Notes under the pieces: generated by a model
Told to the model about the DNA's origin: nothing
What the model saw: the letters and a program-made list of their open reading frames with translations, nothing else
Database searches by the model: none
Assembly: GCF_004010195.1 (NCBI RefSeq)
Contig: NC_057718.1
Coordinates: 99,559,822-99,623,821 of the forward strand
Source: Chiloscyllium plagiosum
Taxonomy: Eukaryota
Length of the DNA stretch: 64,000 nucleotides
Direction of reading: 5' to 3'
Made by a program: the position numbers and the translations under genes
Shown: piece after piece, positions 3,270 through 59,976 of the stretch
How positions within the stretch are numbered: the first letter of the stretch is position 1
Layout: each line of letters starts with the position of its first letter

Positions 3270-3583
3270 CAGAGAAACTCAACAGGTCTGGCAGCATCTG
3301 TAGAGAGAGAAATGGGGTTAATATTTCAGGTCCAGTGACCCATCTTCAAACCTCCAAGCATTAACTCTGTTTCTCTCCCCACAGATGCTGCCAGACCCGT
3401 TGAGTTTCATATAGTCATAGAGATGTACAGCACGGAAACAGACCCTTCAGTCCACCTCATCCATGCCGACCAGATATCTTAAATTAATCTAGTCCCATTT
3501 GCCAGCACTTGGTCCATATCCCTCTAAACCCTTTCCCCTAGCAATTTCTGTCTTTGTTTCAGATTTCCAGCATCTGCAGTTCT
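3270..3583. mobile_element. Penelope-like terminal unit (family B, inverted), interrupted by a CR1 3' fragment at ~3409-3535 (-)
   Basis: aaactcaacaggtctggcagcatctg ... cagatgctgccagacccgttgagttt inverted arms; the sequence resumes after the insert. Confidence 0.7.
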
Positions 3584-3617
3584 TTAACTTACTCTTTACC
3601 TCAAAATCATTACTGTA

Positions 3618-6035
3618 CTTGGGGCTATGATGTTGTGGTCATAATGGAGATGTGGGTTTCACAGGTTCAGGAATGGTTGCTAGATGTTCCAGGGTTTAGA
3701 ATGTTTAAAAGGAACAGGGAGGGTGGAAAACAAGGAGGGGGTGTAGCATTGCTAATCAGAGAGTGCATCACAGAAACAAACGTTGTTGGGGAAGGTTTGT
3801 CTACTGAGTCAGTATGGGTGGAAGTTAGGAACAGCAAGGGAGCAGCCACCTCATTGGGGGTTCTCTACAGACCCCCTAATAACAGTAGAGAGATTGAAGA
3901 ACTGGTAAGCCGGCAGATTTTGGAAAAATGCAGGTGTAGCAGGGTTGTTGTTGTGGGTGACTTCACCTTTCCCAATATTGACTGGAACCTCCTGAGTGCC
4001 GATGGTTTGGATGAGGCCGTTTTTGTCAGGTGTGTTCAGGAGGGTTTCCTTACTCAGTATGTAGACAGACCAATGAGGGGAGAGGCCATTTTGGATTTGG
4101 TGCTCGGCAATGAGCCAGGACAGGTGTCAGATCTCACGGTGGGAGAACACTTTGGTGACAGTGATCACAACTGCCTCACATTTACCATAACCTTGGAGAG
4201 GGAAAGGAGCAGATACAGAGGAAAGATATTTAATTGGGGAAAAGGAAATTATGACGCAATCAGACTGGAGTTGGGAAGTACAGACTGGGAGCAATTGTTC
4301 CACAGAAAGGGCACAGCAGACATGTGGAGACTATTTAAGGAGCAGTTGTTGCGGGTGATGCACAAATTTGTTCCTCTGAGACAGGTGAGAACGGGTAAGA
4401 TTAAGGAACCTTGGATGATGAGAACAGAGGAACTTCTCATCAAAAAGAAGAAGGTAGCTTATGTAAGGTGGAGGAAGCAAGGATCTAGTACAGCTTTAAG
4501 GATTACGGGCTTGCTAGAAAGGAGCTCAGGAATGGACTGAGGAGAGCCAGGAGGGGGCACGAAAAAGGCTTGGCAAATTGATAAAGTCGATGTGCTGGAA
4601 ATTGTGGCAAACATTAAGATTGATAATCCCCAGGACCAGACCAGATTTATCCTAGGCTGCTCTGGGAAGGAAGAAAGGAGGTTGCTAAGCCATTGGTGAA
4701 GAGTTTTGCCTCCTCACTCTTCAAGGGAGCCATACCAGAGAATTGCAAGGAGGCGAATGTTGTTCCTCTTTTCAAGAAGGGGAACATGGAAATCTCTGGC
4801 AATTACAGACCAGTCAGTCTCACATCTGTGGTCATCAAGGTTTTGGAAAGAATTCTGAGGGATAGGATTTATGACTATTTGGAAAAGCACAGTGTGATTA
4901 AAGGCAGTCAGCATGGTTTTGTGAGTGGCAGGTCGTGCCAAACTAATCTTATTGAGTTCTTCAAGGAGGTGACAAGACAGGTTGATGAAGGTCGAGCAGT
5001 GGATGTGGTGTATATGGACTTTAGCAAGGCACTTGATAAGGTTCCCCATGGTAGGCTCATTCATAAAGTCAGAAGGTATGGGGTACAGGGAGATTTGGCT
5101 ATCTGGATTCAGAATTGATTGGCTGAGAGAAAGTAGAGAGTGGTTGTAGATGGAACGTATTCTGCCTGGACGTCAGTGTTGAGTGGGGTCCCTCAGGGCT
5201 CTGTTCTTGGGCCTCTGTTCTTTGTAGGTTTTATAAATGACTTGGATGAGGAGGTTGTGCGGTGGGTTAGTAAATTTGCAGATGACACAAAGGTCGATAG
5301 TATCGAGGGCTATCGCAGGCTGCAGTCCGACATAGACAGGATGCAGAGCTGGGCTGAGAAATGGCAGATGGAGTTCAACCTGGATAAATGCAAAGTGATG
5401 CATTTTGGAAGGTCGAACGTGAATGCTGAATATAAGATTAAAGACAGGATTCTTGGCAGTGTGGAGGAACTGAGGGATCTTGGTGTTCAAGTATATATAT
5501 CTCTCAAAGTTTCCACCCAAGTAGATACGATTGTTAAGAAAGCATATGGTGTTTTGGCTTTCATTAACAGGGGGATCGAGTTTAAGAACCACAAGGTTTT
5601 GCTCCAGCTTTACAAGTCCCTGGTGAGACCACACTTGGAATATTGTGTCTAGTTCTGGTCATCTATAACAAAGATACAGAGGCTTTGGAGAGGGTGCAAA
5701 GAAAGTTTACCAGGATGCTGCCTGGACTGGAGGGCTTGACTTATGAAGAGACGTTGACTAAACTTGGGCCTTACTCTCTGGAGAGAAGGATGAAGAAAGG
5801 TGATCTGATTGAGGTATACAAGGTAATGAGAGGCATGGATAGAGTCAATAGCCAGAGACTTTTCCCCAGGGCAGCTTTGACTGGGATGACGGGTCATTGT
5901 TTTAAGATATTTGGAGAAAGGTATAGAGGATGTTATAGAGGACATCAGAGGTATGTTCTTTACACAGAGACTTGTGAATGCATGGAATGCGTTGCCAGTG
6001 GTGGTGGTGGAAGCAGAGTCATTGGGGATGTTTAA
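3618..6035 (+). pseudogene. Disrupted LINE ORF2 (pol) spread over ORFs 3554-4540, 4693-5118, 5140-5652 and 5643-6035
   Basis: Collinear EN-tether-RT-CTD fragments broken by frameshifts and an in-frame TGA at ~5116. Confidence 0.9.
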
Positions 6036-6183
6036 GCGACTGCTGAACATGTACATTGACAGCAGTGCATTGAGGGGTGCGTAGGTAATGTTATTCTATT
6101 TTACATTAGGATTAATCTTTGGCACAACATCGTAGTCCGAAGGGCCTGTTCTGTGCTGTACGTTTCTATGTTCTATGTTCTAT
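3618..6183 (+). mobile_element. 5'-truncated CR1/HER1-type LINE with decayed ORF2 (APE endonuclease + reverse transcriptase)
   Basis: GGGVALLI, YRPP, VGDFTFPNIDW, SDHN (APE motifs); NYRPVSLTS, QHGF, DFSKALDKV, GVPQGSVLGP, KFADDTK (RT motifs); (ttctatg)n tail; stops, frameshifts and internal deletions. Confidence 0.95.
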
Positions 6184-6704
6184 AATTGAAGGAAAATGCT
6201 GTGGAGTCTGGAGATGATGGTGCTACCTCTGATCATGAATCTGCCTCATTCTCTAACTCCTGCTGCTCTTTCTCTCTGTTCCACTTGCTCCTCTACACCT
6301 TGATCCACAGCATAAAACCCGTCAGTTTCTCGTTTTAGTTCTGAAGAAGGGTCACAGTGGACTCAAAGACGTTAACTCGGGTCTCTCTCGACACAGGTGA
6401 CTTCATCCAGTCCTTACTGTTATTATTTTATCCACAGCAGCCAATTCGAGGAATCACATTTTCGGAAAGATGCTAAGATTTTCCATGGACCAGAAACAAA
6501 AAGAAAATGAAAGTAGGTTCAATAGAAAGATCAAAACTGAAAATATCATTCAATAATGAGGAATGAACTGAAACTAAAATGCCAACAACCTGCAGCTTTA
6601 AGAAAGTAAAACATCACTGTGTGCTAGGCAGGAGCCTCATACCTGGACTAATGAGGATGTTGAACAGGACATTGTCAGACACTGGAATGAGACAGCATAC
6701 TTGT

Positions 6705-6963
6705 CACATTGACTTGGATCTCATTTACCACCCCCTGAGAAAAAGAACAGGAAATGACATCACCACAGGAAATGATGTCACCACAGGAAATGACATCATC
6801 AACCCAAGGAAAGCCAAACATATAAATAGAAAGCAAGCTACACCACCAGAGCTTCGTTTGGAGTCTCACTGAAGATGTTACCTAGTATGGTGACGAAATG
6901 TCTGAAACTGAACCTTCCAGCTCAGCGAGCAAACCTACATCCAAAACCTCAACCTGAGCTACA
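6705..6963 (+). mobile_element. Penelope-like element 3' end (ORF tail plus pseudo-LTR) with a hammerhead-like core at 6866-6905
   Basis: HIDLDLIYHPLRKRTG peptide tail; 3x 18-bp acaggaaatgacatcacc; ctgaaga-t-gttacc-tagtat-ggtgac-gaaa-tgtc. Confidence 0.75.
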
Positions 6964-7401
6964 AAGGGGAAAGAAATAATCATTTACAATGCTACTTCAG
7001 AGCTGCCAATCAGTGATAATGCCATGGAAATGGGTAGGGTTGGCATTTCAAATAACTGCACTGACAGGTGGATATCTCACACCAAACTTCAGGGCCATGG
7101 TGTTACAATTGTGTGTCTTAACTGAAGCAATGCTTAACCTCGCTTTGCTTAACATGCCAACACTTTGAAGAGCAGGTTCCCTTCTGGTCTTTGCTGGCAC
7201 CAAGCAAAGTGCCAGGCTTATCCATAGCATTGTTAATTCCATACCAGAGGAGCCTCAACTATCCATATTTCAGATTATCCAAAAAAGCTTGCAGGTCCGA
7301 TGACGAAGCAATATTATCTGGCATTCAATTAACCCAACAAAATACTCCCTGCCTGTGTCCTTTGGATAATCGAGGTTCCTCTGCAGACTTCTTTTTTTCA
7401 A

Positions 7402-7728
7402 AGAATCCCTACAGTGTGGAAACAGTCCATTTAGCCCAACATGTTCGCACTGACACCTTCGAAAAGTAATCCACCCAGACCCATTCCCGTACAGTTTGCC
7501 CTTAACTAGTGCACCTAACCTGCACATCCCTGGACACTTGTGCATGGCCAGTTCACCTGACCTGCACACCTTTGGATTGTGGGAAGAAACTGGGGCACCC
7601 GAAGGGAACCCGCGCAGACACGGGGAGAACGTGCAAACTCCACACAGTCAGTCGCCCGAGACTGGAATCAAACCCAGGTCCCTGGTGCTGTGAGGCAGCA
7701 GTGTTAACCACTGAGTCACCATGCCACC
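7402..7728 (-). mobile_element. HE1-type V-SINE
   Basis: Reverse complement of the HE1 head, V-domain and tail. Confidence 0.9.
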
Positions 7729-8249
7729 CAAAAGATATAAGTCTATGATTTCCTGATGTTTCAAGACCAGGAAGCTGTATTTTAATCTCATGCTGATACA
7801 TGTGAGCCCATTGAAATATCAACTGTACTAAGCGGTTAGTGAGAAGGGAAGTGGGATCTGACAGTATAATGTATGACTGGCAGATTAAGTGGGTGGGGAG
7901 GGTGTGGTACATCCAGTAAACAGTTCCCTCAAGCTCCCACCCCTATTGAGGCGGTGAGGAGGGAGCTTCCTCTCCAGACTTCTTCTCAATCTAACGCTGC
8001 CGACTTGCTTACTTCGCAGCTCGCTGCACACTGTGAGAATTTGGCTTTCAAGGTCAAGTTATATTGAACTTCCCTCGGTGTGGGAAAATGTCATCAAGGT
8101 AACCTTTTAGTCCTCGTGATTAGTGCACCATTGAGTAAAGCATCATGTAAGCGAGATAAACATACACTTGCTTCCCGGGCTCCAATAGGCAAAGATATTC
8201 TACAGAACGGATATTTAGCGTCTAGCCATGATTCAAAGGGTGTGTGTGT

Positions 8250-9238
8250 GATTGTGGGTTCAACTCCCACTCCAGAGATTTGCAGATGGTCTGACACTCC
8301 AGTGCTGTACTGAGGAGGTGCAGCATTGCCAGAAATGCAGCTTTTCACCCATAACACCAAACCACGCCTCCATCCCCACCTGCTCTTGAAGTGACCGTGA
8401 AAGAAGAGGATGGGAGTAATCCCTTGGTGTTCCGGCCAATATTTATCCCCCCAAAGAACATCCTTTAATAAACAGACTGCAAAGTTATTACAGGGGCACT
8501 GCTGTTTGTGGGATCTTGCTCTATAGAGATGTACAGCACGGAAACAGACCCTTTGTTTCAACTCATCCATGCCAACCAGATGTTCCTAGATTAATCTAGT
8601 CCCATTTGCCAGCACTCGGCCCAGATCCCTCTAAACCCTTCCTATTCATTTCCCCATCCACATGCCTTTTAAATAGTGTAATTGTACCAGCCTCCACCAC
8701 TTCCTCTGGCAGCTTGATCCATACACGCACCTCCCTCTGTGTAAAAAAGTTGCCCCTTAGGTTCCTTTTATATCTTCCACTCTCACCTTAAACCTATGCT
8801 CTCTAAATTTGGACTCGCTTGGAAAAGACTTTGTCTACTTACCCTATATGCCCCTCATGATTTTATAAACCTCTATAAGGTCACCCCTCAGCCTCAGACG
8901 CTCCAGGGAAAACAGCCCCAGCCTGTTCAGCCTCTCCCTATAGCACAAATCCTCCAACCATGACAACATCCTTGTAAATCTTTTCTGAATGCTTTAATGT
9001 TTCACAACATCTTTCTGATAGTAAGGAGAGCAGAACTCAATGTAGTATTCCAACAGTGACCTAACCAATATCTCATACAGCCACAACATGACCTCCCAAC
9101 TCTTATACTCAATGCATATTGGCAGATCTGTTTCCCACTTTACAACATGTGATTATGTTTCAAATTATATTCAAATTATGGTGAAGCACATTGGAACTTT
9201 GTAAGGTCATGAAAGGTTGTAATGTAAAGCTTTTATTT
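8250..9238 (+). mobile_element. Old Deu-domain SINE (SacSINE1-like), split by a CR1 insertion
   Basis: gggttcaactcccactccaga B box; ggtgttccggccaatatttatccc; ctgtttgtgggatcttgct | gcatattggcagatctgtttcc; catgaaaggttgtaatgtaaagc tail. Confidence 0.7.
8522..9114 (-). mobile_element. CR1-type LINE 3' fragment
   Basis: Reverse complement of the CR1 C-terminus and 3'UTR (gagatgtacagcacggaaacagaccc end). Confidence 0.9.
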
Positions 9239-10094: not shown

Positions 10095-10270
10095 CATGAT
10101 GTGGAGGTGCTGGTGTTGGACTGTGGTGGAGAAAGTTAAAAATCACACAACACCAGGTTATAGTCCAACAGATTTATTTGGAAGCACTAGCTTTCGGAGC
10201 TCTGCTCCTTTGTCAGGTAGATAGTGGGGCAGGATCAGAGGACACAGAATTTATAGCAAATGATGCAGCT
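10095..10270 (-). mobile_element. Penelope-like terminal unit (family C)
   Basis: ggtgttggac...caccaggttatagtccaacag...ctagctttcggagc, shared with 12179, 16195, 45445, 49590 and 53180. Confidence 0.7.
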
Positions 10271-10493: not shown

Positions 10494-10720
10494 TGAAATA
10501 ACACGACAGAGGCCAGTATCCTGTCACCGATTCACCCTTTATTTACACCTGAACAGTCCTTGACTCTAGTACTACATCATTCAGAGTCGACTCTCAGAGT
10601 GTCAGTATCTCTGATGCTCACCCTTTTTATCTGTCAGCCAAGGCTCCCTGTTGAACAGCCCCAATCAGGGAACTCATACTGTATAAGGTCTACCTGGCTA
10701 ACCTCATTACAATCACAACA
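10494..10720 (-). mobile_element. Probable solo LTR (Gypsy-like)
   Basis: Minus strand runs TGTTGTGATTG...TTATTTCA (TG..CA ends) with an AATAAA-like signal; a related fragment lies at ~59735-59790. Confidence 0.55.
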
Positions 10721-11143
10721 GACACCTGGCTAACCTCATTACAATCACAACAGACACCTGACTAACCTCATTACAATCACGACGGACACCTGGCTAACCT
10801 CATTACATTCACGACAGATACCTGGCTAACCTCATTACAATCATGACAGACACCTGGCTAACCTCATTACAATCATGGCAGATACCTGGCGAACCTCATT
10901 ACAATCATGACAGATACCTGGCTAACCTCATTACAATCACGACAGACACCTGGCTAACCTCATTACAATCACGACGGACACCTGGCTAACCTCATTACAA
11001 TCACGACAGATACCTGGCTAACCTCATTACAATCACAACAGACACCTGGCTAACCTCATTACAATCATGACAGACACCTGGCTAACCTCATTACAAACAT
11101 GACAGATACCTGGTTAACCTCATTACAATCATGACAGATACCA
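10692..11143. repeat. 32-bp minisatellite, ~14 copies
   Basis: Unit acctggctaacctcattacaatcacgacagay; period 32 (10692, 10724, ...). Confidence 0.97.
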
Positions 11144-11895: not shown

Positions 11896-12855
11896 CCATA
11901 TATATTCATGTAAAAGCTGAAGTTTTTAGACTACTTTTTAAGGTTAAATTTATGGGGTCAACTATTACATGGATACTGCCTTCAAAGGGCTACTGCATCA
12001 TTAGCAGAAGTTCAACGAATTTCTAAACGAATAAAGAGTAAAAAAAAATGAATTACAGCAATTACCAGATAAAGACATTAGAAACAAACATGAATCAGTA
12101 AACTTCTATTTATACATACAAAAAGTGAAGTAGAAATATAATTCAGCTTTAAATCACAATTACATGGTGTATCTTAAATTGTGATGTGGAGGAGCTGGTG
12201 TTGGACTGGTGTGGACAAAGTTCAAAATGACACAACACCAGGTTATAGTCCAACAGGTTCATTTAAAAGTACAAGCTTGCACTTTCAAATAAACCTGTTG
12301 GAGTATAACCTGGCGTTGTGTCGTTTTTAACTTCATCTTAAAGAGGTCAAATACAAAAGTTCACCTTCCTCCAGCCTCTCACTAGTTTCTCCAAAACACA
12401 AAATTCTCTTGCTGCTCTGCAGTTATTTGTCTTCTCTGAAACTCTAATAACTTTGAGTTTAAATGCTGTGGTTTTTTTTTTTAAAATTTTCTGGAGGGCA
12501 TTTTTACACAAAATGATGAAAAAATTTCAAAAACTCAACTAGGTATATGGCTGTATTCCATGAGTGCGATGAGGGAACGGAGCTCAGCTGAGCTGCTCAC
12601 CAAGAGAGGTTGTCATCTTAAACTTTGGCACCAAACTGGTGTGGATTGTACATCAAAGCACATAATAGCATGATCAAAAAGTTCATTTCCTCTCCATAAC
12701 ATTTACGTACAGAATAATACCTTGACTCGCAAATGTTGATCTATTATCTGTGAAGAACTAGGGTCAACTTTTGCATGAGATATATGGAAAATTCCAGATG
12801 TTTGGGTCAAAAATAGGAGGTGACATGAGACTGACTTTTACTCAAGTATATCCGG
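11896..12855 (-). mobile_element. Internally deleted Tc2/pogo-superfamily DNA transposon
   Basis: Degenerate TIRs ccatatatattcatgtaaaag / cttttactcaagtatatccgg (15/21 match), TA on the right flank; minus-strand peptide TAFKLKVIRVSEKTNNCRAAREFCVLEKLVRGWRKV at 12362-12470. Confidence 0.8.
12179..12336. mobile_element. Penelope-like family C inverted unit nested in the pogo relic
   Basis: ccaggttatagtccaacagg ... cctgttggagtataacctgg arms; atcttaaa duplicated at 12171 and 12337. Confidence 0.75.
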
Positions 12856-13369: not shown

Positions 13370-14495
13370 TTATTTATTTACTCTTGGGACATGAATGTCG
13401 CTGGCTGGGTCAGCATTCATTACCCATCCCTAGTTGCCCCTTTGAGAAGGTGGGAGTGAGCTGCCTTCTTGAACCGCTGGAGTCCACCTGCTGTGGGTTG
13501 ACGCACAATGCCCTGAGGGAGGGAATGCCAGGATTTTGACCCAGCGACAGTGAAGGAACGGTGATATATTTCCAAGTCAGGATGGTGATTGGCAGAGGGT
13601 GGTGTTCGCATCTATCTGCTGCCCTTGTACTTCTAGATAGAAGTGGTTGTGGATTGGAAGATGCTGTCTTAGGATCTTTGACGTATTTCTGCAGTGCATC
13701 TTGTAGATAGTACACACAGCTGCTACTGAGCATTGGTAGTGGAGGGAGTGGGTATTTGAGGATGTGATGTCAATCAAGTGGGGACTGCTTTGTCCCTGGA
13801 CGGTGTTGGGCTCCCTGAGTGTTGTTGGAGTTGCGCCCATCCAGGCAAGTGGGGAGTATTCTATCAGTATTCCTATACTCTGACCTGCTCTTGTAGCCAT
13901 TGTGTTTATGTGGTAAGTCCAGTTGAGTTTCTGGTCAATAATAACCTCAAGGATGTTGATAGTTGGGAAATTCAATAACACCATTGAATGTCAAGGGGCA
14001 GGGATCAGGTTTGTTCTAAAGAAGGGTCACTGGACTCAAAATATTAACTATGTTTTTTCTCCACATATGCTTCCAGATCTGCTGAGTTTTCCCAGCAATT
14101 TCTGCTTTTTTTGTGTTGATCTGATTGTCTTGTATTTGATGGTCATTGCCTGGCATTCGTGTGAAACGAATGTTCCTTGCCACTTGTCAGCCCAAGCTTG
14201 AATATTGTCCACATTTAATTGCATTTGAACACGGACCTCTTCAGTATCTGAAGAATCACAAATAATGCTGAGCATTGTGCAATCGTCGATGAACATTGCC
14301 ATTTCTGACCTTATGATGGAGGGAAGGTCATAGATGAAGCAGCTGAAGATGGTTCGGCCTAGGGAATTACCCTGAGGGACTCATGCAGAGGTGTCCTACA
14401 GCTGTAATGATGGACCTCCATCAACCACAGCCATTTTCCAACGTGTCGGTTATGACGCGGAGAGTTTGCTCCCTGATACCCATTGATTCTAGCTT
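13370..14495 (-). mobile_element. Decayed LINE of the second CR1-superfamily family (RT C-terminus plus 3' end), with a Penelope family B fragment at ~14010-14115
   Basis: MFIDDCT (degenerate FADD), QAWADKWQ, LEVIIDQKLNWTYHI, EYSPLAW, HSLH..SVAAVCTIYKMHC. Confidence 0.85.
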
Positions 14496-14601
14496 CACAC
14501 GCTTCAAATATATTTAAAAGTGTGATGGAGCAGCAAAGAGATCCAGGGGAAAAGGTGAAGAAATCAGTTTTGTAAGACTAAAGAGGCTTGATGGGAGCAG
14601 A

Positions 14602-14805
14602 TTACTGCAGATGCTGGAGTCTGTGCTGAAAACAGCAAATGCTGGAGATCACAGTGGGTCAGGCAGCATCCATGGAGAGAGAGCGAGCTAACGTTTAGGA
14701 TGTAGACTATGTCACATCAGCTCAGATGAAGAGTCATCTTGACTCGAAACATTAGCTTGCTCTCTCTCCATGGATGCTGTCTGGTCTCCAGCACTTTTGT
14801 TTTCA
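14602..14805. mobile_element. Penelope-like terminal unit (family D, inverted)
   Basis: cagcatccatggagagagagcgagctaacg ... cattagcttgctctctctccatggatgctg; gatgaagagtcatctttgactcgaaa. Confidence 0.7.
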
Positions 14806-15888: not shown

Positions 15889-16194
15889 CAACACACTGGA
15901 GGTGATGGAGGGTTAAGATAATAGTGTAAATATGCAACATTGTCCATGGAAATGCCTCTGTCAATCAGAGTCCATTTGCTAACCAATCAACACTCCCTTC
16001 TCATGCAGTACAAATTGTTGTTCACTTTGCAATGTAGTATTCTTGCAATTCTGTCCTGATGAGTGCTAGAAAATAGGACTCTATCCCGAACACTCAATAT
16101 TGGTTGATTATTTCAATTTGGAGAGAGCAGCTAATTAATCAGGAAAGATCAGATACTTGAAATGATGCTTCTCAGCCTACTGTGGCCCTCTTAA

Positions 16195-16442
16195 GGTGGA
16201 CAAGGTCAGAAGTCACATGATGCCAGGTTACAGTTCAACAGGTTTATTTGAAATCACAAGCTTTCGGAGCACTGCTCCTTCATCAGATGAAGTGAGGGAG
16301 AAGTGCACAGGCACAGAATTCTCTCTCTCTTCAACTGACAAAGGGGCAGCGCTTCGAAAGCTTGTGATTTCAAATAAACCAGTTGGACTATAACCCGGTG
16401 TTACGTGACTTCTGACTTTGTCCATCCCAATCAGCACCTCCC
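16195..16442. mobile_element. Penelope-like family C hairpin unit
   Basis: Long inverted arms; intact hammerhead-like core on the minus strand at ~16256-16290. Confidence 0.8.
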
Positions 16443-17149
16443 TATCGTATCTTTTCAAGTGAAGGAAGTTTTGGGATATACGTTCTGATATATAAGGCAT
16501 AGCGGAACGATGTACAAGATTACAATTGTCTTAAATTAATCTTCTATCGAAACGAAACCTACATTCCTCTGATTCCCTCAGGGCTTTTCTTCCTGAAACA
16601 CGAGGAATAAATATTAAAGGACAATGACATTTTGTTTCTCGATTATCGTCTTTCCAGATGGGGGTGACTCAATTTGGAAAGTTGTTTACCACTTCCTGAA
16701 GCATTGTGGGACAGGTCTAACATAGCTTCATGTCCTTCCAGATTCTTACCACTTCACACCTGGAAACCTACTGCTGTATTGAAACACTTCCTTAAAGAAT
16801 GGATGTCAAAACAACAAGACGAAAGGATGTAGCTCAACAAGTTAAATAGCCTCAAGATTTCAGATTTTTCTTTTATTAATGGTCAAGCTTTCTCCTTTTA
16901 ACAAAGAATTCAGTTTCTCTTTTGGTTTTAATGCCTCCAACTCAAATCTGCCATCTGTTGTTTCTGACTTTGGGAAATATAAACTTAGTAACAGAAGCTA
17001 AGAAATGCAACCAATAATGAGTCACCAGAATTAATACTTCTTTTTACATTTACAAATCATGTAGATTTCTATCTGGAGCAAAATCCATGCTTCAAATTGA
17101 TGCAATTGTTGTTTATTTATATCTTAAAGCAATGCAGTGATAGCACTTG

Positions 17150-17721
17150 AAAGGTTGCCAATATGATCAAAGATGAAAATGTGTTGCTGGAAAAGCGCAG
17201 CAGGTCAGGCAGCATCCAAGGAGCAGGAGAATCGACGTTTCGGGCATAAGCCCTTCTTCAGGAAGAAGGGCTTATGCCCGAAACGTCGATTCTCCTGTTC
17301 CTTGGATGCTGCCTGACCTGCTGCGCTTTTCCAGCAACACATTTTCAGCTCTGATCTCCAGCATCTGCAGACCTCACTTTCTCCCCAATATGATCAAAGA
17401 CCCCTCCCACCCCAGTCATGCTCTTCTGTCAGGCGGAAGAGACAGACGCTTGAATACACACACGCCGACAGGTTCAGGAACAGCTTCTTCCCAGCTGTTC
17501 TTAGACTGATGAATGGACTCTCTAACTTCAAGTAATGTTAATCTTGTTGATGTTGATCTTGCCTAGCGCTCAGCGATACCTGAATGCCTTACTCTGCTCA
17601 AGCTTTACTTTCCACCCTATGATCTGTGTGTCCTTGCTTATTATGATCTCCCTGTACTGCTCACAAACAAAGCTTTTCACTGTATTTAGGTACACATGCC
17701 TATAATAAATCAAATCAAATC
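17150..17721 (+). mobile_element. Rex1/Babar-type LINE 3' fragment, interrupted by a Penelope hairpin
   Basis: IKDPSHPSHAL..SG.R ... RFRNSFFPAVLRLMN peptide remnants; (caaat)n tail. Confidence 0.7.
17174..17384. mobile_element. Penelope-like family A near-perfect hairpin unit with a 16-bp TSD
   Basis: ~86-bp arms at 17174-17347; ccaatatgatcaaaga at 17158-17173 and 17385-17400. Confidence 0.9.
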
Positions 17722-18093
17722 ACTACATTCTATCTATAAAGCAGGATTTATCACAGTGTTTTAAAATATCTGCTCCACACTTCAGTTGTAGCTTCCAACT
17801 CATTAAAATCTTTGTTCACTTCTCTCTGAGTCCACACCCAGGGTTAAAGCTTCAAGCACAGGAAGTATAAATAGTCAACACAGCACCACTGCATCAAGGG
17901 AAAACCATAACTATAGGAAGTAGAAAGTCTACAGACTCAATACTGGACAGTTGACTAAATTATTAGTTAACAGATTCTTCTTCTTAGTGAATAGGAGCAG
18001 AATATCATTATAATGCACAAAGAGAAGGTGAACAAGGTGACTTAGAGATGGGAAATTTACAGAAAACATGTTTAACGTGTGACCAAGTGTGAT

Positions 18094-18215
18094 TGAAAAC
18101 AACAAATGCTGGGGGTCACAGCGGGTCAGGCAGCATCCATGGAGAGAGAGCAAACTAACGTTTCCAGTCTAGATGACTCTTCATCAGAGCATGACATGAA
18201 CTGGGAGAATGAGAT
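18094..18215 (-). mobile_element. Penelope-like family D unit
   Basis: taacgtttccagtctagatgactcttcatcag (reverse complement of ctgatga...gaaacgtta). Confidence 0.7.
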
Positions 18216-18485: not shown

Positions 18486-18618
18486 AGGAGAAAGTGAGGA
18501 CTGCAGATGCTGGGGATCAGAGTCGAGGAATGAGCTCATTCCTGATGAAGAGCTCATGCCCGAAACATTGATTCTCCTGTTGCCTGACCGGCTGTGCTTT
18601 TCCAGTGCCACACTCTCA
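18486..18618. mobile_element. Penelope-like family A unit with a 17-bp imperfect TSD
   Basis: gccctgggtatttttct (18469-18485) / gcccttggcatttttct (18619-18635). Confidence 0.8.
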
Positions 18619-21950: not shown

Positions 21951-22079
21951 AGGAGAAAGTGAGGCCTGCAGATGCTGGAGATCAGAGTCGAGAATGTGGT
22001 GCTGGAAAAGCACAGCAGGTCAGCCAGCATCCGAGGAGCAGGAGAGTCGGCGTTTTGGGCATAGGCCCTTCATCAGGAA
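21951..22079 (-). mobile_element. Penelope-like family A unit inserted in a CR1 fragment
   Basis: tgaccagagc duplicated at 21938 and 22080. Confidence 0.8.
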
Positions 22080-22704: not shown

Positions 22705-22874
22705 GGCAGAAATGGATAGTGCAGATGCTGGAGTAAATCAAGATTAGAGTGGTGCTGGAAAAGCACAGCAGGTCAGGCAGCATCCGAGGAGCAGGGCAAT
22801 CGACGTTTCAGTCGATTTTCCTGCTCCTCAGATGCTGCCTGACCTGCTGTGCTTTTCCAGCACCACTCTAATCT
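22705..22874. mobile_element. Penelope-like family A hairpin unit inside a CR1 3' end (22590-22922, -)
   Basis: 14-bp TSD ccatatccctctca at 22691-22704 and 22875-22888. Confidence 0.85.
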
Positions 22875-23870
22875 CCATATCCCTCTCAACCCATCCTATT
22901 GATACATCCATCCAGATGCTTTCTCTCTCTCTCCCTCACTGACATTGTGGCTGCTGCCTTTGGTCTTTCTTCCTACTTTTAAAAGTACCATTGTTTTGAT
23001 CTTTCTTCCCCAAAGTTTCAAAACAAAGCAACAGTTTATAAAACAGTAATTGCTGCTCCTGGAGTTCGAGGAAATCACCTCAAATATCTCAAAAATGGAA
23101 CAGGTCTTACAGCCATAATGTTTTCCTATTCTCCATCTTGGATTACCCAGAATCTTCCCTGACTGGTGCTCATAGGTCACAGTGCACAGGGTAAGACAGA
23201 AAAATGAATAACCCCTTTAAAACAAATAATTATTACGTGACTCATTAATGAAATGAATGTCTGATTTGTGGAACAGTATTCCAATATTGAAAGGCTACAC
23301 TTTTGATCAAAAGTGGCTGTCTCAGGTAGTGTTAATCATTCCCTTTGTGAAATATTTTAAACAATTGCTATCTTTGTTAAAAATAAAGCTGCCAAATTAA
23401 AATTTCTGTCTGTAATATCTGGTTTCCAATTGGTTGTGCATCTGACATTTACTCCTTCTGACTAAATATCTGACTCAGTGATTTTTCTGCACTGTCCGTT
23501 CGTTTGTATCTGATGGATTGCATTCCAAATAAAAGAAGTGGACAATTGTATTCTTTCAAAACCAAAATCCCCATGATATCACCAGCAGGATGTGATGGCA
23601 GTGCCCCTGGTAACAATGCATGTTTGTTGACAGCCCAGATCTCAGTGTTTCCCAACTCGCCGCCTTCTGGGCTGAACATTCAGTGGATTACTAAACAACT
23701 TGACAACTCCTCATACCTTTTAACTTGCTTCGGAGGTGGAATGTTACATTCTCCCACAATCCCAAGGGGACCCCATCAAACTCCCCAGATGACCTTCCAT
23801 CCAGACTCCTGTGTTTTTGATCTTTCCTGCACTTTGTGGTCAGATTAGCGGGAGGGGGTGCCAAGACTGG

Positions 23871-24004
23871 GTGGAAATGGGTACTGCAGATGCTGGAGAT
23901 TAGAGTCAAGATTAGAGTGGTGCTGGAAAAGCACAGCAGGTCAGGCAGCATCCGAGGAGCAGGGAAAATCGATGTTTCAGGGAAAAGCCCTTCATCAGGA
24001 CTCA
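23871..24004 (-). mobile_element. Penelope-like family A unit
   Basis: TSD gccaagactgg at 23860-23870 and 24008-24018. Confidence 0.8.
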
Positions 24005-25794: not shown

Positions 25795-25955
25795 AAACCG
25801 AAAGAGCTGCAGATGCTGTAAGTCAGAAACAAAAACAGAAGTTGCAGGGTAAGCTCAGCTGAGATCTGAGGAAGGGTCACCAGATCTGAAACGTTAACTC
25901 TGATTTCTCTGCGCAAGATGCTGCTGAGCTTTTCCAGCAATTTCTGTTTTTGTTG
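25795..25955. mobile_element. Penelope-like family B inverted unit
   Basis: ctgaggaagggtcaccagatctgaaacgttaac core; aacaaaaacagaa / tttctgtttttgtt arms. Confidence 0.7.
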
Positions 25956-29132: not shown

Positions 29133-29250
29133 ACTGCAGAATCTGGAATCTGTACTGAAACCAATAAATGCTGGAGATCCCAGCGGGTCAGACAGCATCC
29201 ATGCAGAGAGAGCAAGCAAACGTTTCAAGTCTAGATGACTCTTCATCGGA
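29133..29250 (-). mobile_element. Penelope-like family D unit
   Basis: aacgtttcaagtctagatgactcttcatcgg; matches 18094-18190. Confidence 0.7.
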
Positions 29251-30759: not shown

Positions 30760-31009
30760 AGGAGAAAGTGAGGACTGCAGATGCTGGAGATCAGAGTCGA
30801 GAGGGCGGTGCTGGAAAAACACAGCAGGTCAGGCAGCATCCAAGGAGCAGGAGAATCGACGCTTCGGGTATAAGCCCTTCATCAGGAATGTCGACATTTC
30901 GTGCATAATCTGTCCATCAGGATGATGAGGGGCTTCTGCTCGAAACGTCGATTCTCCTGCTCCTCAGATGCGGACTGACCCGGCTGTGCTTTTCCAGCAC
31001 CACACTTTA
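30760..31009. mobile_element. Penelope-like family A inverted unit
   Basis: Inverted arms; gaccgaac at 30751-30758 and 31010-31017. Confidence 0.8.
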
Positions 31010-34840: not shown

Positions 34841-34997
34841 GCAGCGTCCGAGGAGCAGGAAAATCGACGTTTCGGGCAAAAGCCCTTCCTCAGGAATGAA
34901 GGCCTTCTGCCCGAAACGTTAATTTTCCTACTCCTCGGATGCTGCTTGACCTGCTGTGCTCTTCCAGCACCACTCTAATCTCCAGTCCTCACCTTTG
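34841..34997. mobile_element. Penelope-like family A hairpin unit with a 15-bp TSD
   Basis: tccagtgttagtctg at 34826-34840 and 34998-35012. Confidence 0.85.
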
Positions 34998-35017
34998 TCC
35001 AGTGTTAGTCTGTCTTT

Positions 35018-39319: not shown

Positions 39320-40445
39320 GTCATCGAATCAAACAGATGTACAGCACAGAAACAGACCCTTCGGTCCAACTCGTCCATGCCGGCCAGATATCCGAAATTA
39401 ATCTAGTCCCATTTGCCAATATTTAGCCCTTATCCCTCTAAACCCTTCCTACTCATATACCCATCCAGGTGCCTTTTTAATGCTGTAACTGTACCAGCCT
39501 CCACCACTTCCTCTGGCAGCTCATTCCATACGTGTACCACCCTCTGTGTGAAAACGTTGCCCCTTAGGTCTCCTTTAAATCTTTCCCTCTCACCCTAAAC
39601 TTATGCCTTCTAGTACTGGACTCCCCGACCCCATGGAAAAGACCTTGTCTATTTATCATATCGATGCTCCTCATGATTTTGTAAACCTCTATAAGGTCAC
39701 TCCTCAGCCTCCAACACTCCGGGGAAAACAGCCCCAGCCTGTTCAGCCTCTCCCTGTAGCTCAGATCCTCCAACCCTGGCAACATCCTTGTAAATCTTTT
39801 CTGAACCCTTTCAAGTTTAACACCACCCTTCCTATAGCAAGGAGAGCAGAACTGAACCTTGCATTCCAAAAGTGGCCTAACCAACGTCCTGTATAACCTC
39901 AACATGACCTCCCAACCCCTGTACTTAATGCACTGACCAATTGCCTTTATTGGTCAGAGTATTGAGTACAGGGGTTGGGAGGTCATGTTGAGGTTATACA
40001 GGACGTTGGCAATAAAGGCCTTCTTCACTATCCAATCTACCCGAGAATCCACTTTCAAGGAGCTATGAAACTGCACTCTAAGGTCTCTTTGTTCAGCAAT
40101 ACTCCCCAAGACCTTACCATTAAGTTTATAAGGCAAAAGTGAGGACTGCAGATACTGGAGATCACAGTCTAGATTAGTGAGGTGCTGGAAAAGCACAGCA
40201 GGTCAGCAGCATCCGAGGAGCAAGAAAATCACGTTTCGGGCCTGATGGAGGGCTTTTGCCCAAAACGCCGATTTTCCTGCTCCTCGGATGCTACCTGACC
40301 TGCTGTGCTTTTCCAGCATCATTCTAATCTTGACATTAGGTGTATACGTCATGCCCTGATTTGTTTAGCCAAAATACAGCATCTCGCATTTATCTTGATT
40401 AAATTCCATATGCCACACCTTGGCCCATCGGCCCATCTGATCAAC
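39320..40445 (-). mobile_element. CR1 3' fragment with an internal inverted duplication and a Penelope unit (~40131-40334)
   Basis: LRLYRTLVRPLLE...KLERVQKRFTRMLPGLE; inverted segment at 39941-40009. Confidence 0.9.
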
Positions 40446-40723: not shown

Positions 40724-40859
40724 TAAAAACAATGACTGCAGATGCTGGAAACCAGATTCTGGATCAGTGGTGCTGGAAGAGCACAGCAGTTCAGGCAGCA
40801 TCCAACGAGCAGCGAAATCGACGTTTCGGGCAAAAGCCCTTCAGCAGGAATAAAGGCAG
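40724..40859 (-). mobile_element. Penelope-like family A' unit with a 14-bp TSD
   Basis: tgatctgtgtgtgg at 40710-40723 and 40860-40873; same variant as 59207-59332. Confidence 0.85.
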
Positions 40860-41925: not shown

Positions 41926-42217
41926 GCTCTAAGATCTGAATCTGTTCAACATCAAACAAAGGTTCCAATTACCTCAGAGCACTCTCCCCAAAGATTTTCT
42001 CCTTATTTGGGTAAAATGATTGGATTGTACCAACAGGAATAATCAGACCAGTAATAAAACCCAATGTTACTGAGCACTGTCACCATGCAAAAGAGCAAAA
42101 CTTCTGCAGCAGAGTCATACCAGACTCACAACGTTAGCTCTGTTTCTCTCTCCACAGAGGCTGCCAGACCTGTTGAGTTTCTCCAGCACTCTCTGTTTCT
42201 ATTTCCCATTCACATTG

Positions 42218-45225: not shown

Positions 45226-45653
45226 CCTTCAGAGATTGGTGATGACCTGCCTTCTTAACCCACTGCATTCCATGTGCTGAAGGTGCTCATAGAGTGCAGT
45301 GAGGCAGCAGGACAATGAAAGAACAGTGATGTAACTCCAAGTCAGAAGTGAGTGTGATTTAATTTGGAGGGGTATGTGAAGGTTATGGTGACCCCATGCT
45401 TCTGCTGATCTTGTCCTTCTGGGTAGTACAGGTCACAGGTTTGGAGCGCTGACCAAGGGGCAGTGCTCCGAAAGCTTGTGACCTCAGATGTACCTGTTGG
45501 ACTATAACCTGGTGTCATGTGACTTTTGACGTTGTCCATCCCAGACCAACATCATTGGCTATTCTTGTAGCCACAGAGTTTGCAAGCCAGTCATTGAAAC
45601 CAAAAAGGTGGTTCAAAAACTGCAGCGTGCCCCCATTTGAAGAGTTACTTGAC

Positions 45654-48766: not shown

Positions 48767-49730
48767 CTTCCTGATTTGTTTGTTGGATCTGCCTGTTAAA
48801 TCTCTGATGGTTCATTTACAAGGGCCACCAAAATACCTCTGAACACTGGCAATTCCCAATCTCTGACCTTGTGGAAATGCATTGGGTGGAATTTTAAGCT
48901 CCCTCGCCAGGATGTTTGACGATACAATGGCCTATCCTCTGCCAATCCGCCCCTCACCCTGGCCTCCTAACCATTTTGCTGGAGGCATCAGGGAACCCAC
49001 TCAGACCTGGGCCAATTGCAGCTCTACAATGGTCCCCCTGCCTCCACTGCTAACGCATCCATCGTTAAGGGAGGCTGTCGCTTAAGGGGGTCTCCAAGGA
49101 GACTTTACAGTGCGGGATGGTGCCAGGCAAATGGGGGGAAGCATTTTCCACCTTTAAGACGTCCCCCCCGTGCCCATTAGAAGCATCCCACCTTCCCAAA
49201 AGGTAGGCACCTGCTTTGTATTGTCAACAAACCTGGCTTTGTTAGACTCAATCCCCTCCGGGATTGATTTAGATTGTGACAAACTAAGGGCCAGAGAGTA
49301 ATCCTGACAGCATCTAATTATTTACAATCCGCCAGCACCAAAATGGCGTCCTCAGTCCAATTCTCAGGTTCTATCCATTCACTCATCCTCAATCTGTGCT
49401 CAGAGGTGACTCACTCCCTCCCCCTCTCCCTCCCCCTAACATCCACACGCCCTAATTTTATGGTTTCACATCTGGCACCTTACCAAATGTTTTAGAAAAT
49501 CTAATTAGCCTGGCCCCCAGCACACCCACACGCAATGCAATCTCGATCCTAACCACTCGCTATCTGAAAATGTTTTTCCTCAGGTAGCCATGATGTGGGG
49601 GAGCCAGTGTTGGACTGGGGTGGACAAAGTTCAAAGTCACACAACTCTTGGTTATAGTCCAAAGGTTTATTTGGAAACACTAGCTTTCAGAGCGCTGCAT
49701 CTTCATCAGGTGGTTGTAGAGCAGGATTAG

Positions 49731-50028: not shown

Positions 50029-50280
50029 CATAAAACACAGAATTTATAGCAAAAGGGCACAGTGTCATCCAACTGAAATAATATATTGATCAAACCAAGA
50101 CTGGTTTTAAGTGCTGTTAAGAAATTCTGGGATTTACATATTAATGAACCAAAACCTGCAACCCATTCGAAAAGATAAAAGACTTAACAGCAATCTAGGT
50201 TTGTTCAATATATTGTTTCAGCTGCATGACACTGTGATCTTTTGCTATAAATTCTGTGTCTTATGATCCTGCTCCATTGC

Positions 50281-50315
50281 TACCTGATGAAGGAGCAGCG
50301 CTCCGAAAGCTAGTG
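50281..50315 (+). ncRNA. Putative minimal type I hammerhead ribozyme motif
   Basis: uac-CUGAUGA-a-GGAGC-agc-GCUCC-GAAA-GCUA-gug; palindromic AGCU helix III; CUA cleavage triplet. Confidence 0.65.
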
Positions 50316-50379
50316 CTTCCAAATAAACCTGTTGGACTATAACCTGCTGTTGTGCAATTTTTAACTTTCGCCTCAGTTC

Positions 50380-53689: not shown

Positions 53690-53892
53690 GCACTTCTCAT
53701 GATGCTGCCTGGTTTGCTGTGTACCCCCAGCTTCCTGATACTGCCTGCCTTGCTGTGTCCCCCAGCCTCCTGATGCTGCCTGCCTTGCTGTGTTCCCCCA
53801 GCCTCCTGATGCTGCCTGGTTTACTGTGATCTTCCAGCCTCTTGCCTGACTACTTTGGATTCCAGCATGTGCAGTTTTTTTGTCTTGAACTC
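53690..53892 (+). mobile_element. Penelope-related unit with 4x ~34-bp internal tandem repeat and a 13-bp TSD
   Basis: tgtacctttaagg at 53677-53689 and 53893-53905; unit tgatgctgcctgccttgctgtgttcccccagcctcc. Confidence 0.7.
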
Positions 53893-58832: not shown

Positions 58833-59029
58833 TTTGAATGGACCTCTCCAATGTTAATGTCAATCTCCCTCTCTCTGCACCATCTCTACAGCTGTAACAC
58901 TATATTTCGCTCTCTGTTCTGAGACACTGACGCACTTTGTATTGTACAATCTTATACAGCACGCTAAACAACACTTCTCACTGTATCTCGGTAGGTGTGA
59001 CAACAATAAATCAAATCAAATCAAATCAA
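58833..59029 (+). mobile_element. Rex1/Babar-type 3'UTR fragment
   Basis: tgaatggacctctc ... cactgtatctcggta ... aataaa(tcaaa)n; similar to 17510-17721. Confidence 0.65.
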
Positions 59030-59207
59030 ACCCTAACCCTACTCTGAACCCTAAAGCTAATCTTAACCTTAATCCTAACTGTGGCCCTATTCCAAACTGT
59101 AATGTTGATCCTAACCCTAATCCTTATCCTAACCCCAATCCTAATCCTAGCCCTAAACTTCATCCTAATCCTGACCCTAATCCTTATCCTAACCCTAACC
59201 CTAATCC
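59029..59207 (+). repeat. Degenerate telomere-like hexamer array (CCTAAC/CCTAAT)n
   Basis: ~30 hexamers including aaccctaaccct and cctaaccctaaccctaa. Confidence 0.9.
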
Positions 59208-59238
59208 TGATGAAGGGCTTTTGCCCGAAACGTCGATT
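59203..59238 (+). ncRNA. Putative minimal type I hammerhead ribozyme motif
   Basis: aauc-CUGAUGA-a-GGGC-uuuu-GCCC-GAAA-CGUC-gauu; 4-bp stem I; ACGU palindrome; GUC triplet. Confidence 0.65.
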
Positions 59239-59386
59239 TTGCCTGTCCTCGGATGCTGCCTGAATTGCTGTGCTCTTCCAGCACCACTGATCCAGAATCT
59301 GGTTTCCAGCATCTGCAGTCATTGTTTTTACCTTCCTCTCTCCACATCATTCTCCCTGTTCTTGGCTTGCACACCAGCTGGATAGT

Positions 59387-59725
59387 GGGAGGAGGCATTA
59401 GCCTAGTGGTATTATTGCTAGACTGTTAATCCAGTCAATGTCCTGTGGACCCAGGTTCGAATCCTGTCATGGCAGACGGTATAATTTGAACTCCGTTAAA
59501 TATGGAGTTCGGAGTCAAATGATGACCATGAATCCAATGTCAATTGTTGGAAAAACCCATCAGGCTCATTAATGTCCTTTAGGGAAGGAAATCTGCCACA
59601 CTTCCCCGGTCTGGCCTGCATGTGGCTCCAGACCCACAACAATGTGACTGACCCTTAACAATTAGGGATGGGCAATAAATGACCTGGCCAGTGATTCCCT
59701 CATCCCAGGAATGACTAAACAAAAG
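59387..59725 (+). mobile_element. Second tRNA-derived SINE family
   Basis: ggaggcattagcctagtgg A box, ggttcgaatcc B box, gggatgggcaataaatg tail. Confidence 0.8.
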
Positions 59726-59850
59726 TCTCACCCTGACAGCTGCCTCTGAGGGAGCTGGATCAGTGTGTGTGTGCGTGCAAGGACTCTCCTCCTTGACTGT
59801 GTCTGAGAGGAAGGGGACTGTCTTTGGACCAGCTGCCCCACATTCTGAGA

Positions 59851-59976
59851 AGTGTGAAGAAGGGCTCATGCCTGAAACGTCGATTCTCCTGCTCCTTGGA
59901 CGCTGCCTGACCTGCTGCACTTTTCCAGCAACACATTTTCAGCTCTGATCTCCATCATCTGAAGTCCTCACTTTCT
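59851..59976 (+). mobile_element. Penelope-like family A unit with a 13-bp TSD
   Basis: ccacattctgaga at 59838-59850 and 59977-59989. Confidence 0.85.

Follow-up and report, generated by a model that had tools for sequence, protein, structure and literature searches.

Minimal hammerhead motifs in short, decaying inserts of probable Penelope type in Chiloscyllium plagiosum, with a candidate poly(A) site in one family

The window analysed here, the whole stretch of 64,000 nucleotides of Chiloscyllium plagiosum DNA (contig NC_057718.1, positions 99,559,822 to 99,623,821), contains inserts of 100-270 bp, covering roughly 7% of it, in which hammerhead motifs are accompanied by target-site duplications, head-to-head arms and the "tail" of Penelope-like elements (PLEs). 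There are 28 traceable arms with a locatable core, in five families, F1 to F5 (Table 1). The core-box patterns CUGANGA and GAAA..UH could be reconstructed for all five, a bulged nucleotide separates positions 9 and 10.1 in every registered arm, and closure by G10.1-C11.1 is the family majority state, other copies showing CpG-type decay. Positions 15.2-16.2 form a palindrome without loop 3, which is ACGU in F1, F3 and F5, AGCU in F2 and AUGU in the single F4 copy. An earlier note on this DNA described minimal type I hammerheads of the kind borne by PLEs, whose palindromic helix III has no loop, and this description is supported.

Table 1 Hammerhead motifs and associated features in the window
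Family	Feature	Positions	Strand	Remark
F1 (stem II GGGC/GCCC, ACGU)	Complete minimal hammerhead, C3 to H17	59207..59234	+	Heads a ~130-bp insert that ends near 59335
F1	Complete core, left arm of head-to-head insert	17234..17261	-	P(stem II)=0 in context
F1	Head-to-head insertion, young	17174-17384 (whole 17158..17400)	.	16-bp target-site duplication 17158-17173, 17385-17400
F1	Right arm, 5' box truncated	17260..17287	+	
F1	Complete core in head-to-head insert 34838-34996	34866..34893	-	15-bp flanking repeat
F1	Right arm, 5' box truncated, stem II damaged	34893..34920	+	
F1	Copy, A6>C	40820..40847	-	14-bp flanking repeat
F1	Copy, G12>A and U16.1>C	22049..22076	-	10-bp flanking repeat
F1	Copy, C11.1>U and broken palindrome	23971..23998	-	11-bp flanking repeat
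F1	Copy, A15.1>G	30858..30885	-	Second decayed motif directly upstream, same strand
F1	Right arm without C3	30922..30949	+	
F1	Right arm, A9>G, G12>A, U16.1>C	40242..40269	+	
F1	Left arm paired with 40242..40269	40130-40241	-	Only motif 3' half
F1	Copy without C3, C11.1>U	59854..59881	+	13-bp flanking repeat
F1	Copy, stem II and palindrome both broken	18542..18569	+	
F1	Head-to-head pair, only motif 3' halves	22715..22876	.	14-bp flanking repeat
F2 (GGAGC/GCUCC, AGCU)	Complete minimal hammerhead	50284..50312	+	In longest F2 copy (50134-50368)
F2	AAUAAA hexamer, then GU/U-rich tract	50322..50327	+	9 nt after cut site
F2	Complete core, left arm of head-to-head insert 16205-16430	16258..16286	-	
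F2	AAUAAA (16248-16243) and poly(A) point	16232..16248	-	Poly(A) after about 16232 in family-wide RNA reads
F2	Right arm, G8>A	16335..16363	+	
F2	Copy, G8>A	10188..10216	-	
F2	Copy, G8>C	45449..45477	+	Hexamer lost
F2	Copy, boxes intact, stem II broken	49681..49709	-	
F2	Head-to-head 3' halves	12190..12335	.	Inverted on AGCU palindrome itself (12273-12278)
F3 (GGGUC)	Copy, boxes and palindrome intact	25866..25895	+	G.U closing pair, helix I mismatch
F3	Copy, G12>A and 1-nt insertion	6341..6373	+	
F3	Copy, G5>A, G12>A	14016..14045	+	
F3	Copy, C3>U, left arm of head-to-head insert	3320..3349	-	Insert interrupted by another repeat
F3/F5-type	Copy, heavily decayed, core broken	42104..42135	+	C3 at 42104
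F4 (GUUACC/GGUGAC)	Single copy, boxes intact	6869..6902	+	UGU tail, palindrome AUGU
F5 (GAGUC)	Copy, U4>A, broken palindrome (CAU tail)	14723..14753	+	
F5	Left arm paired with 14723..14753	14595-14696	-	Motif 3' part
F5	Copy, G.G mismatch at 10.1-11.1 closing pair	18157..18187	-	
F5	Copy, U4>C	29219..29249	-	

The strict pattern CUGANGA..GAAA with a stem II of at least 3 bp matched ten times, against a mean of 1.2 in 20 dinucleotide shuffles of the window; with the (CGU or GCU)H tail added, seven matches were obtained, and thirteen when the tail-bearing pattern was allowed one core mismatch, against none in all 20 shuffles in both cases. A relaxed descriptor gave 19 sites (shuffle mean 0.75), of which 18 lie within the families; the remaining one, at 1140, is probably a chance match. 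The number of motifs claimed earlier (about 20) and their coordinates are borne out by these searches, the cut sites predicted at 50312 and 59234 are correct, and the GGGUC example, placed at 25867, starts at 25866. An Rfam covariance-model search of the window gave 17 matches at E<=5, none of them a hammerhead, as is expected for motifs that lack helix III.

The cores, presented earlier as intact, are real motifs in excess of the shuffles, but few are complete. Both boxes are intact in 11 of the 28 arms, eight also have a stem II of at least 3 bp, six have a Watson-Crick palindrome in addition, and only five retain all defining features including the G10.1-C11.1 pair (59207+, 17261-, 34893-, 50284+ and 16286-). 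Several of the examples named in the earlier note are damaged (14723, 18187, 6869 and 25866), and stem II, said to pair always, has at most three contiguous pairs at 23998, 30885, 18542, 49709, 18187 and 34893+. The cores decay like their flanks: differences from the family majority amount to 30/373 in the core and 142/1794 in the 3' flank (p=0.92; non-CpG 17/314 vs 126/1727, CpG 13/59 vs 16/67), although weak selection is still compatible with this result because the test is small and its ends are trimmed.

The families are less unrelated than had been supposed, since those with GGGC, GGGUC and GAGUCA stems have downstream sequence in common, the latter two aligning end to end, and only GGAGC and GUUACC stand apart. 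Stem II covaries between families, as claimed, but only modestly within the GGGUC/GAGUCA alignment, where 87.3% of cells are paired (0/500 shuffles as high), with three double-change pairs (40/500 shuffles) and a covariation score reached in 7/500. Helix I, which none of the strict search patterns included, shows complementarity in each of the five families, with 16/20 positions Watson-Crick within families against 18/80 across them (p=3e-6); in F1 it comprises only 2 bp, followed by a U.U mismatch. Among the four ACGU-type families, most helix I registers do not fit one another, and GGGUC and GAGUCA alone are near-compatible. Because a double hammerhead also needs helix I across partners, palindrome class alone would not set compatibility, and the proposal that dimers are matched by the ACGU or AGCU class does not agree with the cross-family count.

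At least 11 inserts are head-to-head, and exact flanking repeats, sought at 24 inserts, measure at least 10 bp at seven, 8 bp at five and are lacking at twelve. The 3' ends lie at one of two distances downstream of the cut, about 60 or 97-100 nt in F1 and 55-69 or 86-92 nt in most F2 copies, and one arm is longer by 37-40 nt (the tail) at 17174-17384 and 30760-31008. The former insertion, with a 37-nt tail on its right arm, is absent in organism B, where X10 record 1 joins 17157 to 17385. Pfam, applied to 28 of the 53 long window frames, detected APE/RT LINE pieces only and no PLE reverse transcriptase or GIY-YIG, and metagenome and viral scans gave 0 matches. The inserts are too short to contain a frame for these PLE proteins, and no open reading frame lies between the repeats. 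In F4, a frame of 34 codons starts with an ATG at A9-bulge-G10.1, and an upstream frame of 55 codons, for which a homology search gave no real relative, terminates at the UGA of the core.

AAUAAA is retained 9 nt after the cut in seven of the nine F2 copies, and the alignment published in 2014 (PMC4209133) has it at this place in its turtle and Xenopus(2) rows. In RNA run X21, one poly(A)-primed single-cell sample of which about 2% was read and which would miss cut products, reads span the F1 and F2 motifs. T-run loose ends at 16232/16236 were seen in 189+168 of these reads (357), with first mates distributed 433 vs 35 by strand; such reads cross the uncut F2 motif, and the tail begins about 26 nt after the cut site. 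About half of them (187-189), judging from the loose-end consensus, apparently come from a copy missing 3 nt in the 5' box. Taken alone, the F2 poly(A) site is probably genuine. A poly(A) site in use directly behind the hammerhead, probable here in one lineage, is the only detail that the literature searched did not show.

The eight head-to-head inserts that were folded gave hairpins of -68 to -183 kcal/mol. Three of the five complete arms are in head-to-head hairpins, with a predicted stem II probability of 0; 59207 keeps its stem II (predicted P about 0.9). Constrained homodimers of five copies with a usable helix I cost +2.7 to +9.7 kcal/mol in a model without Mg2+, tertiary contacts or protein help.

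What the data show is the anatomy of the motif, 3' ends at fixed distances, duplications, an empty site, core and flank decaying equally, and uncut F2 RNA with poly(A). The inserts are likely 5'-truncated end-pieces of PLEs, and their hammerheads likely passengers that were functional in the parents and are mostly inert now. We infer the PLE origin with no PLE protein found. The two classes of 3' ends resemble the PLE tail and twin start sites of reverse transcription described before (PMC11167929, PMC3846280, PMC8557442), and a PLE protein would here start synthesis on uncut RNA at either of two putative fixed sites, ~55-65 or 86-100 nt downstream of the cut, so that any copy longer than about 100-130 nt would carry the motif. 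Synthesis would halt at or just upstream of the core, often folding back into a head-to-head arm, and the insert would gain its flanking target-site duplication and then decay without selection. In the parents, cleavage by the type I fold would depend on a double hammerhead formed within one family, probably aided by an element protein, and selection for such a fold would account for the between-family covariation of stem II and helix I. Most copies are broken and probably inert in vivo.

Other readings of these inserts were weighed against truncated PLE ends. Chance matches or assembly artefacts, which a short motif and the Rfam result might suggest, are refuted by the shuffles, by the complementarity of helix I and by the presence of the repeats in independent DNA runs of two organisms, and their probability is practically nil. 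The earlier note saw in the dispersed copies a large reservoir of self-cleaving RNA that would cut host transcripts by dimerising, with partners set by the palindrome. Neutral decay of the cores, burial of three of the five complete arms in hairpins, poor helix I pairing across families and positive dimer energies leave a reservoir of active RNA unsupported and highly improbable, even with a very high copy number, five of 28 arms complete, 4409 repeat RNA reads on both strands in X21 and the published in vitro activity of PLE minimal hammerheads, nil as monomers and low but real as dimers (PMC4209133). No complete same-family pair on one strand of the window was recorded, yet 17261- and 34893- are both listed as complete F1 arms. 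In run X21, whose library is poorly suited to showing cut products, read begins and ends did not pile up where cuts would fall, and there was zero depth on the unique flanks of 16150-18700, which is a weak test.

Non-autonomous mini-elements, similar to retrozymes or SINEs, in which an RNA of 100-130 nt starting at the 5' edge of the hammerhead is mobilised in trans by PLEs, would explain why 13 of 16 F1 arms start close to C3 and why no F1 arm has common sequence beyond about 7-12 nt upstream; pLTR sequences are reported to suffice in trans (PMC3846280), and animal retrozymes have been derived from pLTRs (bioRxiv 10.64898/2026.07.22.740005). However, these starts are scattered and not at a single base, 379 RNA reads and 564 and 579 contigs continue from 17264 into upstream sequence that they have in common (agreement 0.35-0.48), F2 and F4 copies reach at least 150 nt upstream, and the 15 TRF rows of the window include no tandem array with a hammerhead per unit, one decayed direct pair being present at 30858-30922; we regard this origin as rather unlikely. 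The AGCU-class ends could also be mobile poly(A)-site cassettes, distributed genome-wide and composed of the hammerhead, AAUAAA at +9 nt, a used tail site at +26 nt and a GU-rich element, whose intact copies, dimerised with a same-family partner or assisted by an element protein, would cleave 26 nt before the tail, thereby de-tailing the transcript. The hexamer, the strand-biased T-run reads, the turtle and Xenopus(2) rows and the Clec2 precedent agree with this, but the poly(A) reads represent uncut RNA from one sample, about half of them apparently from the copy with a damaged box, templated A-tracts in unseen source copies are possible, and the cores are free of detected selection. Such an off-switch is a long shot and quite improbable; if true, the cassettes would donate transcript 3' ends and constitute a transposon-borne off-switch like the Clec2 ribozyme.

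As truncated PLE ends, the inserts provide many natural variants for probing the role of PLE hammerheads, still called unclear in the literature. If the F2 poly(A) site is used, 3'-end processing would occur downstream of the cut site but before the point where reverse transcription starts. RNA to be mobilised would then have to evade both, and the inserts would be a source of new transcript ends.

Among known systems, the Clec2 3'-UTR hammerhead (reviewed in PMC6765202) resembles F2 in having its cut site upstream of a polyadenylation signal, but it is a discontinuous, active and conserved host motif, whereas F2 motifs are minimal and repeat-borne, with predicted cleavage. Non-LTR retrozymes (PMC7229834; bioRxiv 10.64898/2026.07.22.740005) are likewise non-coding and PLE-related with a type I hammerhead, but are defined as tandem arrays with a hammerhead per unit, unlike the inserts in the window. 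EN+ PLEs (Arkhipova et al. 2013, PMC3846280; Craig et al. 2021, PMC8557442) share the head-to-head inverted pLTR, palindromic junctions, the optional 30-40 bp tail on one arm and target-site duplications of 8-16 bp, whereas the inserts here represent only the last 100-270 bp. In PAc, the Poseidon element of Anolis (Frangieh et al. 2024, PMC11167929), the tail is likewise delimited by two fixed ends that lie downstream of the ribozyme, and, as in F4, stem II begins with an ATG, the cut following after 25-28 nt; F1, F2, F3 and F5 differ by an A bulge and other downstream sequence, and no coding part is recognisable here. PAc is characterised biochemically, the window copies from sequence; its ribozyme depends on protein and is not required for in vitro insertion, and no RNA-seq reads were seen to end at its cut (PMC11167929).

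The closest likeness is to the minimal hammerheads of PLEs (Cervera and de la Pena 2014, PMC4209133), with the same CUGANGA-bulge-stem II-GAAA-palindrome-UH order, G10.1-C11.1 and a short helix I. In both cases a genome has several consensus families, most copies are solo and truncated, pairs on opposite strands occur, and the ACGU and AGCU classes are both present. In the searched part of its supplement, no shark row was found. The density of 28 arms in 63 kb far exceeds that of the 4,000-9,000 per genome given there, with a strict descriptor, for coelacanth and Xenopus. The association of PLE terminal repeats with minimal hammerheads is already described and is extended here to a very repeat-dense vertebrate genome.

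The hammerhead motifs of this window are real, of a known kind and mostly fossil. The pattern CUGANGA, an optional single nucleotide, stem II and GAAA was fitted by 10 sites, against an average of 1.2 in 20 block-wise dinucleotide shuffles; with the (CGU/GCU)H tail added, seven sites were found, and 13 when one core mismatch was tolerated, with 0 matches in 20/20 shuffles in both cases. A relaxed descriptor including helix I returned 19 sites, 0.75 being expected from shuffles. BLAST from family seeds, together with alignments, gave 28 arms with a locatable core in five groups, F1-F5, defined by stem II (see the table), as well as several arms retaining the 3' half only. Both core boxes are kept in 11 of these 28; eight also have a stem II of at least three pairs, six in addition a perfect helix III palindrome, and five the G10.1-C11.1 pair closing stem II as well, namely 59207 (+), 17261 (-) and 34893 (-) of F1 and 50284 (+) and 16286 (-) of F2. 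The "about 20" cores of the earlier note are thus a fair count of recognizable motifs, not of intact ones. Nor are the families all unrelated, as had been stated, since F1, F3 and F5 have downstream sequence in common and F3 and F5 can be aligned over their whole length. An Rfam search of the window yielded no hammerhead match.

Helix I, which formed no part of the strict search patterns, pairs with its own 3' strand at 16/20 positions and with the strands of other families at 18/80 (one representative per family; Fisher p=3e-6), and the hammerhead fold is genuine at the family level. In the F3/F5 alignment, 87.3% of the cells are paired (0/500 shuffles) and double-sided changes are modest (three pairs, 40/500). 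In a double hammerhead, helix I and helix III both form across the two partners, an established topology with which a figure legend of PMC4209133 agrees. From this requirement and the cross-family pairing, F1, F3/F5 and F4 are predicted not to complement one another despite belonging to one palindrome class, F3 x F5 alone coming close. So, the proposal that the ACGU or AGCU class sets pairing compatibility is unsupported, the palindrome being necessary and, given these helix I counts, insufficient.

Decay was measured as differences from the family majority among copies gathered by homology, the core being compared with the next 60 nt of flank; rows 50112- and 25860-, without core and flank, were left out, F4 has one copy, and flank columns in which at least three rows had a second letter were removed as subfamily markers. 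The cores were no better conserved than their flanks in this comparison: 30/373 differences were counted in the core vs 142/1794 in the flank (p=0.92), in a small sample whose end trimming favours the core. The split was 17/314 vs 126/1727 at non-CpG and 13/59 vs 16/67 at CpG positions, and C11.1-G12 is itself a frequently mutated CpG. Predicted stem II probability is 0 in three of the five complete arms, all three within head-to-head inserts, at most 0.07 for 50284 and ~0.9 for 59207. Eight inverted inserts are predicted to form hairpins of -68 to -183 kcal/mol, and constrained double hammerheads of five copies lie +2.7 to +9.7 kcal/mol above the monomers in a model without Mg2+ and tertiary contacts. 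The window holds no same-strand pair of complete arms of one family. With cores decayed like flanks, 5/28 arms complete and 3/5 of these devoid of predicted stem II, the suggested active reservoir of self-cleaving RNA finds no support. Two F1 hammerheads, both decayed, lie in direct tandem ~36 nt apart at 30858-30922 (-), the upstream unit stopping 2 nt past its own cut site; nowhere else in the window does the layout allow for a double hammerhead having formed in cis.

Every motif sits at the head of an insert of ~100-270 bp. Two classes of 3' end occur, lying ~60 and 97-100 nt past the cut for F1 and, in most cases, 55-69 and 86-92 nt past it for F2. Head-to-head pairs make up at least 11 of the inserts, and where checked, one arm has the longer end. 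Exact flanking repeats measure 10-16 bp at 7/24 inserts tested and 8 bp at five more, with none at 12. The empty site of one palindromic insert, with its 16-bp duplication, is seen in a contig of a second organism, B, that connects 17157 directly with 17385, so this insert is a single insertion event. This insert, missing in organism B, comprises 211 bp of almost perfect palindrome within 17158-17400 (~-180 kcal/mol as RNA). If transcribed, palindromic inserts would yield long dsRNA; sub-threshold Rfam miRNA-precursor matches coincide with their hairpins. The inversion point of the F2 head-to-head pair at 12273-12278 is the helix III palindrome itself, an F1 pair is inverted adjacent to it at 22809-22811, and 53696-53885 contains four tandem 36-bp units from the F1 3' region without a hammerhead. 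Additionally, 13/16 F1 arms start near C3, the first position of the 5' box (e.g., 22076, 34893, 18542, 30885 and 40847), five have identical 4-5 bases just upstream of it, and longer copies are present in reads and contigs.

Features of the window, with hammerhead families defined by stem II
Feature	Coordinates (strand)	Details
F1		stem II GGGC; 13 arms
F2		stem II GGAGC; 6 arms
F3		stem II GGGUC; 5 arms
F4		stem II GUUACC; 1 arm
F5		stem II GAGUC; 3 arms
Longer arm end	inserts 17174-17384 and 30760-31008	37-40 nt
F2 AAUAAA to tail region	16232-16248 (-); 50322-50338 (+)	AAUAAA, GU/U-rich tract; poly(A) in 357 RNA reads
APE-endonuclease/RT LINE fragments	3542-5652 (+); 61579-62331 (+); 14048-14380 (-)	Pfam PF03372, PF14529, PF00078
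32-bp minisatellite	10692-11142	
Gap of 913 N	32510-33422	within CA tract

A Pfam search of 28/53 window frames of at least 110 aa gave only APE/RT LINE pieces and no protein of a Penelope-like element (PLE); SINE-like repeats are abundant. Hammerhead pattern scans had 0 metagenome and 0 viral matches. We infer the PLE origin from the architecture, which strongly suggests that the carriers belong to this order. By the definition in bioRxiv 10.64898/2026.07.22.740005, which demands tandem units, the motifs here are not non-LTR retrozymes; that study detected retrozymes in the one chondrichthyan genome it covered. Ribozyme cleavage was rejected as the origin of the short copies, since copy starts fall upstream of the core and not at the cut site. 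A degenerate CCTAA(C/T) telomere-like tract (59029-59208) adjoins one complete F1 copy and provides the 4-bp 5' strand of its helix I; a telomere-repeat link as an F1 feature was discarded, the CCCTAA-like tract before 59207 being absent from all other F1 arms.

In the single F4 copy, an open frame of 55 codons (6705-6872, +), which contains an 18-bp triple repeat, terminates at a UGA within the core, and a fresh ATG opens 3 nt later, an arrangement that we take to resemble a Poseidon-type ORF end/start junction. Database searches with the 55-aa frame found no relative, the sole match being an unrelated repetitive protein. An 8-bp repeat around this copy is doubtful as a flanking duplication because the upstream frame runs on past it. 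As in the PAc ribozyme (PMC11167929), the ATG lies where stem II starts. Immediately 5' of helix I in one F3 copy (6325-6340, +), a pyrimidine tract with AG resembles the Drosophila virilis Penelope intron end beside helix I (PMC4209133).

Run X21, a single-cell poly(A) RNA library from organism A of which ~2% was read, was aligned to 16150-18700 at 88% likeness, and 4409 reads were placed, all on repeats and 0 on unique flanks; because 97% diverge from the window beyond the aligned part, they derive from other repeat copies. From run X22, 0 reads were placed, which is uninformative. No pile-up of read begins or ends occurs anywhere in 16150-18700, six predicted cut sites included, which is a weak test, as cut products would scarcely be visible in a library of this type. 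T-run loose ends, in 189 and 168 reads before 16232 and 16236, correspond to poly(A) on the hammerhead-sense strand, ~11-13 nt past AAUAAA and 26 nt past the F2 cut site, with first mates divided 433 vs 35 by strand. Loose ends also occur in 187 reads at 16282 and in 224 at 16286. As the segment lengths (70+51+29 and 73+51+26) total the 150-nt read, these probably belong to the reads with poly(A), which would then run uncut over tail, cut site and core. In the first read group, the loose-end consensus (agreement 0.91) implies a single source whose 5' box is 3 nt short; the second group, aligned over the whole core, is mixed (0.58). In 7/9 F2 copies, AAUAAA stands 9 nt past the cut and precedes a GU/U-rich tract, and none of the nine has an A-run. 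Note that this evidence comes from one sample with 2675 loose-end rows beyond those listed, and templated A-tracts at other loci are possible.

Cervera and de la Pena 2014 (PMC4209133) describe minimal hammerheads with a bulge, a G10.1-C11.1 pair and a palindromic 15.2-16.2, in many families per genome, mostly as solo truncated copies and also as opposite-strand pairs; their alignment includes CG and GC palindromes, and cleavage was none for a monomer and low for dimers. The window inserts resemble PLEs, whose hallmarks according to PMC3846280 and PMC8557442 are an inverted arm, an optional tail and target-site duplication. PMC11167929 attributes the tail to reverse transcription starting at either of two sites downstream of the ribozyme; there, the PAc ribozyme is reported to be protein-dependent, dispensable for insertion in vitro and without RNA-seq ends at its cut. 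PLE dimers are reviewed in PMC6765202, as is the Clec2 ribozyme, which lies upstream of a poly(A) signal. A literature search, with subscription papers largely outside its scope, found no description of a poly(A) site right after a PLE hammerhead; in the 2014 alignment (PMC4209133), AAUAAA occupies the same place in the rows for turtle and Xenopus(2). The window motifs would work like the PLE minimal hammerhead class and, on every testable sequence feature, belong to it; the probable F2 poly(A) site adds modestly to this picture.
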